A stretch of 64,000 bases of DNA from an uncultured Mollicutes bacterium (GTDB taxonomy: Bacteria; Bacillota_I; Bacilli_A; Acholeplasmatales; Anaeroplasmataceae), in assembly GCA_945923475.1 (NCBI GenBank), contig CAMELE010000001.1, positions 99,875 to 163,874 of the forward strand, written 5' to 3'. Within the stretch, counting starts at the first letter, position 1, and the number at the start of each line of letters is the position of its first letter. The notes beneath the pieces are model-generated. The model searched no databases, had not been told where the DNA came from, and worked only from the letters and a program-made list of their open reading frames with translations. This document shows, in pieces, positions 48,545 through 57,172 of this stretch. Made by a program: the position numbers and the translations under genes.

Positions 48545-49105
48545 TTATTCATCAAGAAATGATTTACATTCCTCAACTTTGGCTTTCATAGCATCAATGA
48601 TTACATCAAGATTAATGGGATAGCCATGATGAGAGTCAACACCTACATGATACATATAAGGTCGATCTTCAAAAAAATTAGTGGTTTGATGAGTATGACC
48701 GTAAAGATTTAAAGTCATTTGATGAAGATTTTCTCTTTCAAGATTACCAGTCATACAAGGGAAATGGGTCATAAAGAAATGGTATTTACGATAGTTTAAC
48801 ATAATCGCCCAATTCATTTCAATAACATTAGGCAAATCTGCGTAAAGCTTTTGCCGAGTTGCTGTATCATGATTACCAAATACAATATGGAATTTGCCCT
48901 TAAGACGTTTAACATATTCAATATTAGAAGGGTCTCCAAGCATTAAATCACCAAGAATATAAACGTCATCTTCATCAGAAACGACACTATTCCATTTCTC
49001 GACGTAATCTTCATTCATTTCTTCAATTGAAGAATAACCACGAGCTTTCCAAATGAATTCACGATCATGCCCAAAGTGCATATCACTGGTTAAAAAGATT
49101 GCCAT
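48545..49105 (-). CDS. calcineurin-like metallophosphoesterase (candidate polynucleotide phosphatase)
   Basis: SDMHFGHD...GDLMLGD...GNHD motifs. Overlaps the kinase gene immediately upstream. Confidence 0.6.
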   Translation of the reverse strand: MAIFLTSDMHFGHDREFIWKARGYSSIEEMNEDYVEKWNSVVSDEDDVYILGDLMLGDPSNIEYVKRLKGKFHIVFGNHDTATRQKLYADLPNVIEMNWAIMLNYRKYHFFMTHFPCMTGNLERENLHQMTLNLYGHTHQTTNFFEDRPYMYHVGVDSHHGYPINLDVIIDAMKAKVEECKSFLDE

Positions 49106-49590
49106 GTATGAATCACTTCTCCTTTTTCATTAACCTCTTGGATAAGGTTATATTTAATATATTCTTTAAAAGTGGGAGGAGTAAAAGAATTTGCCATATT
49201 TCGAATTACTTCTTCTGGAACTTGCGCTCGACCATCACGCTGTTTATTGCGTTCAATACAAACTTCAACAGGAACATTAAAATAAATAACATTCACATTA
49301 AGATTTGCATATCCTTTTGCGTTAATTGCTTTGAGAAGCTTCTTGCGAGAGCCGGGCCCAAGATGCGTGGCATCCGCATACACATCATCATAGTCTCTTA
49401 AAGAAAGAGTGATTGCTTCAACAAAAGCATGCCATACACTTTCTTCTTTGGCGAAATAGCTTTCATCATCATTTAACATTTGAAAACGAAGAGCATCACG
49501 AGAAACAACATAACCACATTGAGGCCAACGATTTTTAAGGAACGTGCTTTTGCCCGAGCCGAGACTAAGGAATACCAGACATAATCCAAA
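49090..49590 (-). CDS. polynucleotide 5-prime-kinase-like P-loop kinase (T4 Pnk kinase-domain-like); start uncertain
   Basis: LSLGSGKSTFLKNR P-loop and NKQRDGRAQVPEEVIRNM resemble the T4 Pnk kinase domain. No canonical start codon in frame upstream of the P-loop. Confidence 0.5.
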   Translation of the reverse strand, partial: FGLCLVFLSLGSGKSTFLKNRWPQCGYVVSRDALRFQMLNDDESYFAKEESVWHAFVEAITLSLRDYDDVYADATHLGPGSRKKLLKAINAKGYANLNVNVIYFNVPVEVCIERNKQRDGRAQVPEEVIRNMANSFTPPTFKEYIKYNLIQEVNEKGEVIHTWQSF

Positions 49591-49609
49591 GATTCTTTCT
49601 AGTATTCAT

Positions 49610-49996
49610 TTAATCATCCCCTTTCTTTTCTTTACTATGAATTTCTCTATGGCAATTAGCACATACTAATTGACATTTATCTAATTCTTTTTTAATAACT
49701 TGCCAATCTAAAATTAAATTTCTATCACTTAAATTAAAATCTTTTTCTTGAGGATCTAAGTGATGAAAATCAAGTGCTTCAGAACATTTATTATATCCGC
49801 AAATCTCACATTTATTTCCTTTATATTCTAAGGCCCATTTTTTTATTAATGCTCTTTGTCCTGCTCCAGATTTCGGCACTAATGGAACACATTCATAACA
49901 ATATCTTCTATTATAAGCATTTTCTTTTGCTATAAATTTTTTTCCACATTTAGCACAAATTTTTTCAGAAATATTTATGCCTTGACTTCGACGCAA
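49610..49996 (-). CDS. HNH endonuclease
   Basis: HHLDP...CANCH motif. 128 aa. Confidence 0.6.
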   Translation of the reverse strand: MRRSQGINISEKICAKCGKKFIAKENAYNRRYCYECVPLVPKSGAGQRALIKKWALEYKGNKCEICGYNKCSEALDFHHLDPQEKDFNLSDRNLILDWQVIKKELDKCQLVCANCHREIHSKEKKGDD

Positions 49997-50148
49997 TCTT
50001 GAAGCTTTCGCCTAACAAGATTGAGAACAATATTTAGTGTCTCTACGGGATCCCTCAAACTCTTTACCACAATGCTAACAAACTAATTTCATATAATAAT
50101 CTCCTTTATATTGAATTATTATATTTAAAATTTATTTAATAATGATTG

Positions 50149-54722: not shown

Positions 54723-54723
54723 T

Positions 54724-55218
54724 TCAATCCTCCAACTGACAGATATAAACATCTTCATGATGGAGAATTTTTTTAATCATTAATTGAATAATATCCCAGT
54801 CTCCTCCACCAAGACCACACCCAATTTTATAAGGAAAAGCAATCGGAATATAGTCAGGAACTAATTTATTTAAATTTTCTAAACAACTAGCAAATGCTTC
54901 ATAATTAGTGTATCTACACGGGCCATATCCATAATCATATTGAGCGAATAAACTTGCTACTCTATGACCATCTATGGTAGTAGTGCAAGCAACTGCGCCA
55001 AGTAAAATATCATCAGGTGGATTTTCTAATCCTGCGACTTGTGCTTCCGCGTTTTCAATAGTTTTTTTATAATCTACATAGACTTCAGGCCAACGAATAC
55101 GAATTTGTTTGGCAAGACCCGCACCCATAACGCCTTGACAATTTACCTGATGACAAATTACAATTTTAGGGGATAAGTCTAATAGACTTTTTTTATAATA
55201 AGTAAGATTTTTAACCAC
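54724..55218 (-). CDS. macro-domain protein (ADP-ribose binding/processing)
   Basis: IVICHQVNCQGVMGAGLAKQI...GCGLGGGDW motifs. GTG start with GGAG RBS. Stop lies 1 nt from the HslV-like start. Confidence 0.55.
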   Translation of the reverse strand: MVKNLTYYKKSLLDLSPKIVICHQVNCQGVMGAGLAKQIRIRWPEVYVDYKKTIENAEAQVAGLENPPDDILLGAVACTTTIDGHRVASLFAQYDYGYGPCRYTNYEAFASCLENLNKLVPDYIPIAFPYKIGCGLGGGDWDIIQLMIKKILHHEDVYICQLED

Positions 55219-55609
55219 TGATTTTATCTCCGTTATGATAAAAATTACAAAATCTTGAATCGCCACCACAAGAGCAAATTTCGCGTTCCTTAGTGCCCCA
55301 ACATTCTGCGGTTTTATCATCTCTTAAATGATAACATTCACATTTCTTAGTTATTTCAGTAATTGGAACATTTTTGCTCTTGGATTCTTCTTTCTTTTCA
55401 TAATGGCCCGGAACCCAAATAAGATTTTCACCATTAACTTCTTCCCAAGCGTCAGCCATCTGTTGGACACATTCAAGACAATACTGCCAATAAGAATAAC
55501 ATTGATCTCGTGTTAAATCTTCGCTTACTTTATCCCAAAGAGCGATAGGAATTCGCTCTCTAATTTCATATGTATCATTTTTAGCTTGATTTACAGCTTC
55601 ATCAGTCAT
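55211..55609 (-). CDS. Cys-rich protein (132 aa)
   Basis: ORF. Confidence 0.3.
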   Translation of the reverse strand: MTDEAVNQAKNDTYEIRERIPIALWDKVSEDLTRDQCYSYWQYCLECVQQMADAWEEVNGENLIWVPGHYEKKEESKSKNVPITEITKKCECYHLRDDKTAECWGTKEREICSCGGDSRFCNFYHNGDKISG

Positions 55610-55797
55610 AGATAATCCTCCAAGACATATTCAATTTGGTCTAATGTTCCAGTCCTTTTAAGAATTGCTATAACTCTTAAAATAGTAAGAGCATCAAAAA
55701 TGTCATCATAAAGGCAGATAGGGGCTTCCCACTCATTGGCGGAAGCCCACTCTGCATCTAATGATAAATGTTCCATCAATTCATCAAGTTTCATCAT
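55606..55797 (-). CDS. hypothetical protein (63 aa)
   Basis: ORF. Confidence 0.3.
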   Translation of the reverse strand: MMKLDELMEHLSLDAEWASANEWEAPICLYDDIFDALTILRVIAILKRTGTLDQIEYVLEDYL

Positions 55798-57172
55798 TTT
55801 GTACCTCTTCGGCCTCTTCCATATCGGGTGCGGTCTCTTCTGCTTTTACCAAGCCTTCAAGACACTTAAAGGCAAAATTCTTATGCTTATAAGCACAGAA
55901 CTTCGGACGATTAAGAATACGAATTACAACACCTTCACGAACATGGGTTTTACCAATCGGATCAGGACCATCATAATACTGCTCAGCGATATTCTTAATC
56001 CACTCGCCCGCGGAAATGGTATTATCATAAGTAGCTCCAGGATGGTCAGGAATAAAACCTTTCCAAAGCATAGGAACACACTTACAACCCATCTGCTCAC
56101 AACGATAACGCATGAAATCAGGAGTATATTCAACAATATCCCCATCTTCATTAGTCATAGTCATGCGATAAACATAGAAGTCAGACTTGGGAAGTTCATC
56201 ATAGCTACCATCGCCATAGGTACAATAACCAGTGTAAGAGCAACCATAAGAGAAGGTAGTAGTTTCGCCATACTTCTTAAGGAAATCCTTATCATTCAAC
56301 TTCTTGTTGGAAGCAGAAGACATAATAGGTACACCCTCATCGGTAAAGCCAACAACCTCATAATAAACTTCCTCGCCCTTATGAAGCTTACCCTCAAAGA
56401 AATCTGCGTGCTTCTTGCGGAACATATTAGAACCATAGAAGCCGCCTTCCCAGTCATTCAGCACAGTGCGACGAGTGCCAGATACATATCCATATTCATA
56501 AATTGGAGTGCCATCACGATGCATAATTCTATCCAAAAGAGTTCTCTTATAACCCTTAAGCATAGGAAGATAACCGGTGCGCTGAGAAGTACCATGCATC
56601 TTCAGAGTAATCTCAATAAGGTCATTCGGCTTAAAAGCGTCAAGATTATAGGCCAACTGCTCCGTATCAGCATGCTCGATAAACAGAGGGGCAATAGGAG
56701 CTTTCTTCTTGCGCACATGATTCCCTTCGCTTACATGGCCCTGACGATTCTGACGCATAGGAATATACTTCTTACAAATCTCGTGCCCATTCAGAGTAGT
56801 AAATGCGAAACCTTCAGTCAGCTCATTAAGAAGGACTCCAGTATAAGAAACACAACTAAGATGGAGGAATAGACCATCGCTCTTCTCTCCGCGCAAACGA
56901 ATAGTGGTAATATTGCGCTTCATGGGGTCCATATAACCGCCAATGCTCTTACCATTTTCATCTTTCTTGCGCAAAAGATTATTATATTCAGCAAATTCAG
57001 GACTTACCTGACCGTCCGTAGGAAAATAAATACCGAGTTCATCAACCTCATAAGAAGTATCAACACATACAGTATTACCGAAACATTCGCCCAACATCAA
57101 CTTATCAGCATTATTATGTTTTCTTAAATTTTTAATTCTACAAACATATGCATTATAACTCATATTAAACAC
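55784..57172 (-). CDS. RNA ligase-like nucleotidyltransferase (Rnl2-type KxHGT motif), 462 aa
   Basis: EITLKMHGTSQR resembles Rnl2 motif I KIHGTN. GC-richer than flanks. Assignment tentative. Confidence 0.4.
   Translation of the reverse strand: MFNMSYNAYVCRIKNLRKHNNADKLMLGECFGNTVCVDTSYEVDELGIYFPTDGQVSPEFAEYNNLLRKKDENGKSIGGYMDPMKRNITTIRLRGEKSDGLFLHLSCVSYTGVLLNELTEGFAFTTLNGHEICKKYIPMRQNRQGHVSEGNHVRKKKAPIAPLFIEHADTEQLAYNLDAFKPNDLIEITLKMHGTSQRTGYLPMLKGYKRTLLDRIMHRDGTPIYEYGYVSGTRRTVLNDWEGGFYGSNMFRKKHADFFEGKLHKGEEVYYEVVGFTDEGVPIMSSASNKKLNDKDFLKKYGETTTFSYGCSYTGYCTYGDGSYDELPKSDFYVYRMTMTNEDGDIVEYTPDFMRYRCEQMGCKCVPMLWKGFIPDHPGATYDNTISAGEWIKNIAEQYYDGPDPIGKTHVREGVVIRILNRPKFCAYKHKNFAFKCLEGLVKAEETAPDMEEAEEVQNDET

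Follow-up and report, generated by a model that had tools for sequence, protein, structure and literature searches.

The kinase gene in a 64,000-nucleotide (nt) stretch of DNA (assembly GCA_945923475.1, contig CAMELE010000001.1, positions 99,875 to 163,874 of the forward strand, deposited under an uncultured Mollicutes bacterium; hereafter the window) is interrupted by an HNH homing-endonuclease cassette that ends in a frame-breaking 7-nt insert. The gene lies at one end of what we infer to be a variable accessory island (~48.5-60.5 kb of the window), coding for an RNA end-repair kit in a phage that reads TAG as a sense codon. We hold the family assignments and the existence of the cassette with high confidence; whether ribosomes still produce the kinase by shifting frame at the insert is weighed below. 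The interrupted gene, the cassette, and the adjoining phosphoesterase gene were mapped as follows (aa, amino acids; ORF, open reading frame).

48545..49105, minus strand: metallophosphoesterase 1, 186 aa (Pfam Metallophos_2, E value 1.9e-11; phrog_547, 9e-42)
49090..49566, minus strand: kinase body in frame B, from S-L-GSGKST to the stop (AAA_33, 3.4e-18; kinase part of TIGR04075, 3.3e-13; PDB 4GP7, 3e-10)
49561..49567, minus strand: insert of 7 nt, TAGTCTC, interrupting the Walker-A codons (seen on alignment to L009, an intact allele)
49565..49609, minus strand: kinase ORF1, in frame A and supplied by the cassette: an ATG and 13 more codons (MNTRKNLWIMSGIP) up to a TAG
49570..49607, minus strand: predicted hairpin, outer stem 10 bp and inner stem 4 bp (free energy, -15.2 kcal/mol; z, -4.55)
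49610..50092, minus strand: HNH homing endonuclease (phrog_2255, 9e-31; Pfam HNH)
49561..50166, minus strand: the cassette in full, 606 nt inserted at the Walker-A Pro codon, flanked by a 31-nt direct repeat
50167..50204, minus strand: remnant of the ancestral kinase 5' end (ATGAAGCAAAAG...GGAATACC), from comparison with alleles L009 and L018

Besides the HNH gene, the cassette supplied a ribosome-binding site and an ATG of its own, 13 codons re-encoding the beta-1 strand of the kinase, and the 7-nt insert, and the direct repeat around it (49568-49598 and 50166-50196) consisted of kinase 5' coding sequence. The HNH protein was 160 aa long with two in-frame TAG codons read as sense, or 128 aa from TTG 49996. 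The displaced remnant of the kinase 5' end, 598 nt upstream, now forms the 3' end of an 88-aa zinc-ribbon gene (50149..50415). The four codons ahead of the insert were silent relative to intact alleles (TCC GGA ATA CCA replaced by TCT GGT ATT CCT), and the insert itself probably gives the allele immunity to the HNH endonuclease.

The initial annotation had treated the kinase as an intact ORF at 49090..49590; however, that frame (frame B) contained no ATG, GTG, or TTG from the TGA at 49608 down to Met 49479, which is already past the P-loop. The sole plausible start was ATG 49609, abutting the HNH stop codon with AAAGGGG just before it, and this ATG was out of frame with the kinase body and reached a TAG (49567-49565) after 14 codons. 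Intact relatives read MKQKNLWIMSG[IV]P[GA]SGKST, and the window had 7 nt more exactly between the Pro codon and GSGKST, so that GIP was split from GSGKST and the genomic ORF held no contiguous Walker A (G-x-x-[GA]-x-G-K-[ST]). Skipping 1 nt would yield GIPSLGSGKST, and skipping 7 nt would yield the canonical GIPGSGKST. Walker-A spacing was canonical in 119 of 120 kinase homologues, the exception being the variant L010. Gene callers gave a 129-aa, P-loop-less kinase (49090..49479, minus strand) on cassette-bearing and intact alleles alike, on the latter because the caller avoids a 50-nt overlap with the upstream gene, and database annotations of the kinase are therefore systematically truncated. 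An estimate of cassette frequency from counts of 129-aa kinase products was dropped, since intact alleles yield that product too.

Related loci were gathered by phosphoesterase homology or by identical kinase C-termini, and neither search specified the 7-nt insert. All HNH-bearing loci carried the insert, and all HNH-free loci that were checked had an intact kinase; the cassette was present on about half overall (12 of the 20 contigs sampled through two identical C-terminal kinase sequences). The same kinase protein occurred with and without the cassette, and the nearest neighbors of cassette kinase alleles were cassette-free alleles, the pattern that homing leaves. The HNH genes at the kinase site fell into two lineages, one of 160 aa and one of 185 aa, with ~68% amino-acid identity where they align; the breakpoint was the same in both and the left-junction sequences differed, and their last ~115 nt (ATG, 13 codons, hairpin, and TAGTCTC) were 97% identical. 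The 185-aa lineage was carried by L014, L065, L066, L071, L072, and L076, and its 5' two-thirds was just 40-65% nucleotide-identical to the HNH gene of the window.

Within the 52 nt from the ATG to TCTC, ~17 cassette haplotypes had one variable site, silent and located in the hairpin loop, and the P-loop codons just downstream of the insert varied freely, yet solely silently in the kinase frame. A single substitution within the insert (CTC to CTT, in L025) was likewise silent in frame B. All cassette-bearing haplotypes retained 156 open frame-B codons, with no secondary nonsense or frameshift mutation, and substitutions private to them comprised 22 synonymous versus 12 nonsynonymous changes; as a polymorphism test for selection after insertion this is suggestive, but confounded by homing into diverse alleles. 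The variant L010 (Logan SRR17531978, 2560..3151; corresponding to 49560..49620 of the window) had the same 7-nt insert together with a 12-nt deletion that removed the cassette ATG and one hairpin arm and brought another ATG into exact register with the kinase body (MIERIFGLCLVFLSFGSGKST). The HNH gene of L010 was truncated, and its kinase carried two further in-frame 12-nt deletions, three in all.

The kinase body belongs with polynucleotide kinases. It also matched phrog_505 ("polynucleotide kinase") in a profile search, and its best solved relative was the kinase domain of C. thermocellum Pnkp (4GP7), followed by PSTK, Capnocytophaga Pnkp1, and T4 Pnk (1LY1, E value 1.8e-3); a deoxynucleoside-kinase (dNK) match was marginal (0.009). 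A match to a deoxynucleoside monophosphate kinase was one of the results that the initial annotation had named as overturning its reading; the matches were to polynucleotide kinases instead (4GP7, PSTK, and T4 Pnk). Alignment to 4GP7 paired VVSRDALR with VISSDFCR, DATH with DATN, and ERNKQRDGRAQV with ERNKNRTDRQV, which placed the catalytic Asp (SRD; SxD), the Arg three residues on, the DAT motif, and the RxxxR lid in register. From TIGR04075 (bacterial Pnkp), the kinase part alone matched, with 48.7 bits against a cutoff of 750.

The phosphoesterase proposed at 48545..49105 was borne out by its Metallophos_2 and phrog_547 profile matches, and all of its motifs (DxH, GD, GNHD, H, and GHxH) could be read from the sequence. 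The kinase frame overlapped this gene by 16 nt, and the two were neighbors in most of the 40 related viral loci compared, even where phosphoesterase identity fell to 48%; their adjacency is therefore not due to chance, and the two genes form a conserved module. Of the earlier description of a translationally coupled pair, the overlap stood and the intact kinase did not, so that such a pair exists only if ribosomes recode. In L010, L030, and L031, a GIY-YIG endonuclease gene was located between the kinase and phosphoesterase genes, altering the kinase C-terminus (…WQSHV) and phosphoesterase residues 1-11, and the module is a hotspot for homing endonucleases.

We propose, with nearly an even chance of being right, that the interrupted kinase is produced by recoding, through a +1 or +7 ribosomal shift. 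A fraction of ribosomes would stall at CCU while UAG occupies the A site; a +1 move would re-pair CCU as CUU and give the product with two added residues (junction peptide NLWIMSGIPSLGSGK), a +7 move would take CCU to CUC and give the canonical one (junction peptide NLWIMSGIPGSGK), and refolding of the cassette-specific hairpin just behind the ribosome would help the forward move. The predicted hairpin spans from the G of AUG to the first C of the CCU codon preceding UAG, and 0 of 200 shuffled sequences were as stable. It is built of cassette-specific changes (KQ to NTR, plus silent changes), and folding gave no such hairpin in the cassette-free allele L018 (z, +0.78) or in L010. The last codon of the cassette was always CCT, with TAG directly after it, and intact close alleles had CCA at that position. 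On bacterial 70S ribosomes, a hairpin lying upstream stimulates +1 frameshifting at sites that contain a stop codon (PMC6321510), and the take-off site of T4 MobA bypass cassettes features a stop or hungry codon and has a stem-loop on its 5' side (bioRxiv 10.1101/2022.08.31.505936).

Several points weigh against recoding. A +1 shift would lengthen by two residues a Walker-A loop whose spacing is nearly invariant, and the +7 hop would have no matched landing codon, CUC being only near-cognate for tRNA-Pro; no CCN codon was found downstream of take-off, just near-cognate CUU (+1) and CUC (+7). Cassette alleles, found on kinases identical to cassette-free ones, may be too young for decay, and the silent differences among them may derive from the intact alleles that received the cassette. 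A different role for the hairpin is also conceivable, such as stabilizing the 3' end of the HNH mRNA, occluding the start codon, or forming an inverted repeat in the DNA. With a suppressor tRNA present, UAG, which is sense in the phage, stops being a hungry codon, and the island is variable, so that its genes are dispensable in some backgrounds.

The alternative with a considerable chance, though somewhat further below even, is that the kinase is a null allele: the immunity-conferring 7-nt insert of a selfish HNH cassette would kill a dispensable accessory gene, the cassette would home faster than selection purges it, and the toolkit would here work without a 5' kinase, through the phosphoesterase, the ligase, and the other genes alone. 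The broken frame and the lack of a canonical start opening frame B are what such an allele would look like; against this, the cassette brings and conserves a full replacement start region, silent relative to its target, and the stop falls exactly at the junction behind a shift-prone Pro codon, where the highly nonrandom hairpin also ends. Cassettes on kinases identical to intact ones and two HNH lineages sharing a junction point to recent, active homing, and the invariant Walker-A spacing of homologues makes the +1 product look defective; the absence of secondary nonsense or frameshift mutations from cassette haplotypes and the predominance of synonymous private substitutions argue the other way. 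Varying island content favors a null allele. The variant L010 speaks for both sides, since its three kinase deletions and truncated HNH gene fit the decay phase of the homing-endonuclease life cycle, whereas one of these deletions gives frame B an ATG-initiated ORF again, which suggests that there is value in expressing the kinase body.

Two further explanations would remove the need for recoding. Direct translation of frame B, from an ATA, ATC, or CTG start or by TGA read-through in ATG-ATT-AAA-TGA, or a break that is an assembly artifact, is very improbable. L010 does show that an ATG-initiated frame-B N-terminus is possible as an ORF, and frame B is hydrophobic upstream of the P-loop; yet a canonical start codon is lacking, and genetic code 4, with TGA read-through opening frame B, was ruled out because TGA is an ordinary stop that adds almost no coding capacity when read as sense. 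A sequencing or assembly error was ruled out by the identical junction sequence in many independent assemblies from several projects. Reading TAG as sense also failed to rescue the kinase, since frame A gained nine codons and then met a TAA. That the HNH cassette is a self-splicing intron, with the remnant at 50204..50167 spliced to GGCTCGGGC to give a canonical kinase mRNA, is scarcely credible, even though ...GGAATACCT joined to GGCTCGGGC would read GIPGSGKST and the topoisomerase gene of the phage appears to hold group-I-like introns with GIY-YIG ORFs, also undetected by Rfam. The cassette had no Rfam match, even at E values up to 10; outside the HNH ORF it had only ~66 nt plus ~50 nt (~116 nt), too small for a group I core, and this non-ORF sequence was AT-rich and without shared core motifs. 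The splice sites needed would lack the terminal intron G (in L014, the exon-terminal U as well), and the cassette's own ribosome-binding site, ATG, and 13 duplicated codons would be needless. A group I or group II intron is hence very unlikely, and the rejection rests mainly on size and junctions, since Rfam missed the topoisomerase introns too.

If the kinase is still expressed by recoding, it represents a compact case of a homing endonuclease carrying its own translational recoding signal, a kind of element that to our knowledge is essentially known from T4 gene 60 alone. If it is not expressed, the window shows plainly how, in nature, a selfish endonuclease can inactivate a counter-defense gene.

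The topoisomerase II large-subunit gene (38276..42118, minus strand) was interrupted right after DADVDG (40595) and resumed with SHIRILF at 39549. This first insertion was 1,045 nt long, contained a GIY-YIG ORF (39701..40474), followed a U, ended in G, and coincided in position with the coding gap of T4 gene 60. A second interruption extended from ~39346 to ~38299 with a GIY-YIG ORF at 38445..39134, and the 3' segments of both insertions had conserved GC-rich motifs in common. An Rfam search of the insertions gave no match; they are probably group I introns.

The phage uses TAG as a sense codon. With TAG as sense, minus-strand coding in the window rose from 46.8 to 54.4 kb (+7.6 kb), and treating TGA in this way had almost no effect. 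The NrdD, RecJ-like, and lysozyme/amidase proteins were full-length only with 5-9 in-frame TAGs read, and Pfam matches spanned the TAGs (example genes: 12275..14512, 22922..24670, and 43318..44619, all on the minus strand). NrdD translated in this way aligned end to end with a solved homologue (PDB 8p23), its TAG positions aligning with H, K, F, D, and G. No tRNA gene was found in the window. In the island, only one small ORF and the two HNH genes contained in-frame TAGs, and no repair gene did. The candidate recoding site thus occurs in a phage with a reassigned stop codon, and UAG decoding at the shift site probably changes during infection. Because UAG would be sense once a suppressor is active, kinase synthesis might depend on the infection stage: ribosomes would shift frame as long as UAG decoding is inefficient and later, with UAG read as sense, would make an abortive peptide of 24 aa.

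The remaining island genes that bear on RNA repair were the following.

51274..51993, minus strand: metallophosphoesterase 2, 239 aa, NinI/ApaH-like (Metallophos, 4.6e-9; phrog_246, 1.5e-25)
52332..53171, minus strand: Thg1-like 3'-5' nucleotidyltransferase, 279 aa (Pfam Thg1, 8e-30; phrog_4717, 1.6e-87)
53171..53626, minus strand: YqeY/GatB-tail-like protein, 151 aa (Pfam YqeY, 3e-14)
54724..55320, minus strand: macro-domain protein, 198 aa (phrog_335, 1.3e-39; short DarG stretch, 3.9e-11; Pfam Macro, weak)
55784..57172, minus strand: ATP-dependent RNA ligase of Rnl5 architecture (N-terminal OB plus nucleotidyltransferase [NTase] domain), 462 aa (phrog_968 "RNA ligase", 5e-63)
57165..57908, minus strand: second HNH-type homing endonuclease, directly upstream of and overlapping the ligase start (phrog_559, 2.9e-32)
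58710..59492, minus strand: metallophosphoesterase 3, 260 aa (Metallophos, 1e-11; phrog_1649, 4e-26)
59686..60492, minus strand: RlaP-like Pol-beta-family nucleotidyltransferase, 268 aa (phrog_388, 8.9e-21)

The 462-aa ORF with a KMHGTS sequence had been called an Rnl2-like ligase. The ORF is present (likely start, ATG 57163), KMHGTS is ligase motif I, and the matches to phrog_968 and the motifs identify an ATP-dependent RNA ligase rather than a member of a non-ligase family; besides motifs I (K191-MHGTS), III (EVVGF), IV (EGVVIR), and V (KHKNFAFK), alignment recovered Ia (GTRR) and IIIa (YVYR). The label Rnl2-like had to be given up, since the protein has an N-terminal OB domain ahead of the NTase domain, which is the Rnl5 architecture of NgrRnl and DraRnl, whereas Rnl2 enzymes lack an N-terminal OB domain and carry an Rnl2-specific C-terminal domain after the NTase domain. 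It matched the N-terminal OB domain PF21189 and TIGR02306 (DRB0094/DraRnl family), the latter with 34.7 bits against an equivalog cutoff of 151, and belongs to a divergent phage clade (phrog_968). Among 124 homologues, K191, H193, G194, S196, R198, G232, R234, E272, Y335, R336, E413, G414, K429, and K431 were invariant. A profile built from the phage ligase alignment retrieved NgrRnl first (E value 3e-5, OB domain) and T4 Rnl2 second from the PDB.

The closest ligase homologues were from Bacillus phages (47% identity), in which a kinase-HD fusion follows the ligase gene, and in Microbacterium phages the gene adjoins a "polynucleotide kinase." The Deinococcus ligase gene presumably lies near an HD-kinase end-healing gene as well. 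A metagenomic protein (P0358, 726 aa) was a natural fusion of an Rnl5-type ligase, an AAA_33 kinase, and an HD domain, and another ligase homologue (P0350) had precomputed Pfam intein and LAGLIDADG annotations inside it. The ligase of the window was intact beside the second HNH gene, and that HNH gene was missing at the corresponding position in L062, a 189-kb relative.

Of the other genes, the Thg1-like enzyme exceeded the PF04446 cutoff (103.9 bits versus 29.2) and had IRIDGKAF and TQSDEITL in its sequence, and its pairing with the adjacent YqeY gene, as originally proposed, was upheld by the Pfam matches of both. The RlaP-like NTase fell just below the Pfam RlaP (PF10127) cutoff (21.5 bits versus 23). 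Metallophosphoesterase 2 weakly matched the phosphatase part of a phage Pnkp-like family (phrog_8238, 8.9e-5), and a sequence search of solved structures for the three phosphoesterases gave no informative relatives. The toolkit of end healing, end sealing, and a Thg1-like enzyme suggested by the initial annotation fits the family assignments and the known jumbo-phage complements, and it is larger than was described there, adding the RlaP-like NTase, two further metallophosphoesterases, and the macro domain.

Phage RNA-repair kits are a presumed answer to tRNA-cleaving host defenses, and we consider a counter-defense role in RNA repair, against anticodon nucleases as the initial annotation suggested, somewhat probable here from what is known of the families. 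RlaP adds nucleotides to damaged RNA 3' ends (PMC12776372). From such known functions of the enzyme families we propose a division of labor in which the Pnk-type kinase would phosphorylate 5'-OH ends, one or more of the three metallophosphoesterases would remove 2',3'-cyclic or 3'-phosphates, the RlaP-like and Thg1-like enzymes would rebuild lost 3' and 5' nucleotides, respectively, and the Rnl5-type ligase would seal 3'-OH/5'-PO4 breaks in a duplex context, e.g., a tRNA stem-loop. It is unlikely, by comparison, that the enzymes form no anti-anticodon-nuclease kit and act on DNA or RNA:DNA nicks, in DNA end healing during replication or recombination, or in nucleotide, NAD, or ADP-ribose metabolism, their co-location just reflecting a generic accessory island. 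The genes are indeed scattered among unrelated ORFs and homing endonucleases, with a different composition in L062 (NADAR), and the ligase of Bacillus phages lies near DNA ligase and NAD-salvage genes; on the other hand, the ligase family is found repeatedly beside or fused to Pnk-type kinases and a phosphohydrolase. The phrog_547 phosphoesterase family occurs in 1,445 phage records with no evident RNA-repair context, and the three phosphoesterases have no informative solved relatives, whereas RlaP, Thg1, and YqeY are RNA- or tRNA-directed families, RlaP acting on damaged RNA 3' ends (PMC12776372), and the same gene combination is described as a jumbo-phage RNA-repair complement (PMC7824862).

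The window was AT-rich (~31% GC), with nearly every gene on the minus strand. Many metagenome assemblies contained near-identical sequence, as did IMG/VR contigs 190-198 kb long, which therefore points to an abundant uncultivated phage of roughly 195 kb; no isolate phage close at the DNA level was found in the phage collection searched. Between ligase and kinase the island held the macro-domain protein, an HslV-like protein, YqeY, the Thg1-like enzyme, and the second phosphoesterase, and upstream of the ligase were the second HNH endonuclease, the third metallophosphoesterase, and the RlaP-like nucleotidyltransferase. In L062, NADAR and other genes stood where the Thg1-like/YqeY/macro block would be; its equivalent island contained a cREC_REC-domain gene and a NADAR gene (6684..6890 and 13255..13698) and is a variable locus related to RNA repair and ADP-ribose. 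Also inside the repair island of the window were the HslV-like peptidase gene (54216..54758, minus strand; phrog_1040, 1.3e-19) and a homologue of RelE/ParE-like toxins (58425..58700, minus strand; phrog_1213, 2e-9). A 600-aa ORF (62127..63929, minus strand) matched the shoulder and repeat domains of major vault protein (PF11978, 8e-22), and its L062 homologue was 828 aa long.

As a toolkit, the island is an RNA-repair gene set of an already described type (PMC7824862). Jumbo-phage complements hold an ATP-dependent RNA ligase, polynucleotide kinase, and phosphoesterases including calcineurin-like ones, and also RlaP NTase, sporadic Thg1, and macro, NADAR, and cRec domains (PMC7824862). Compared with these, what is particular to the window is the Rnl5-type ligase, the split kinase and metallophosphoesterase, the Thg1-like enzyme with YqeY, the TAG-recoded phage, and the kinase interrupted by a homing-endonuclease cassette. 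As judged from its genes, the window set would be a documented case of cooperation between an Rnl5-type ligase and its partners, namely a Pnkp-like pair in split form, an RlaP-like NTase, and a Thg1-like enzyme.

Like C. thermocellum Pnkp (of Pnkp-Hen1), the window pairs a Pnk-type kinase with a binuclear metallophosphoesterase, and the P-loop, SxD Asp, Arg41-equivalent, and RxxxR lid residues of its kinase align with 4GP7. Bacterial Pnkp is one polypeptide (kinase, metallophosphoesterase, and ligase-type adenylyltransferase), whereas the window has separate kinase and phosphoesterase genes, no ligase domain fused to the kinase, and no Hen1. The phosphoesterase domain of Pnkp is lambda-phosphatase-like, while the adjoining enzyme of the window is small and of the YfcE/Metallophos_2 type; the phosphatase of T4 Pnkp is of the HAD type. 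Rnl5 enzymes seal nicks having a 3'-OH RNA strand. The window ligase shares with NgrRnl and DraRnl (DRB0094) the N-terminal OB domain, the NTase domain after it, and the lack of a C-terminal domain, but it is ~120 residues longer than NgrRnl, with NTase-domain insertions and only ~20% identity.

At the candidate recoding site, as in prfB-type +1 shifting (CUU UGA C, with an upstream Shine-Dalgarno [SD] duplex), the P-site codon could re-pair, CCU as CUU (C:G, U-G, U-G), and as in prfB-type and hairpin-stimulated shifts a stop would occupy the A site with a duplex element immediately 5' (PMC6321510). The stimulator in prfB is an SD:anti-SD duplex, and the candidate here is an mRNA hairpin; unlike prfB-type shifting, the +1 product would gain two residues in the Walker-A loop, and the autoregulatory logic is absent, though the reassigned UAG could supply one.

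A close parallel is T4 gene 60/MobA, whose homing endonuclease is of the HNH family. Its bypassed insert is 50 nt rather than 7 nt, with a matched take-off and landing codon pair that the window cassette lacks; its target is a topoisomerase rather than a P-loop kinase, whose protein is not split into two subunits; ORF1 of the window has just 14 codons and so no long nascent-peptide signal; and recoding in the window is putative. Both systems place a freestanding homing endonuclease within a conserved gene and supply a silently polymorphic copy of target coding sequence. In neither does the endonuclease come without a short insert in highly conserved codons, which in T4 blocks self-cleavage (bioRxiv 10.1101/2022.08.31.505936). 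In both, UAG follows the take-off codon at once, a stem-loop (predicted here) is located 5' of the site, the endonuclease has decayed in some lineages (here L010), and endonuclease, silently changed target copy, and insert are present or absent as one unit. The arrangement resembles a compact analogue of the T4 gene 60/MobA cassette. It is possible, if rather doubtful, that the HNH cassette is a second natural type of mobile element combining a homing endonuclease with a recoding signal, alongside T4 gene 60/MobA, in which the 7-nt immunity insert, the upstream refolding hairpin, and the CCU-UAG site would force a +1 or +7 movement within the Walker-A codons.

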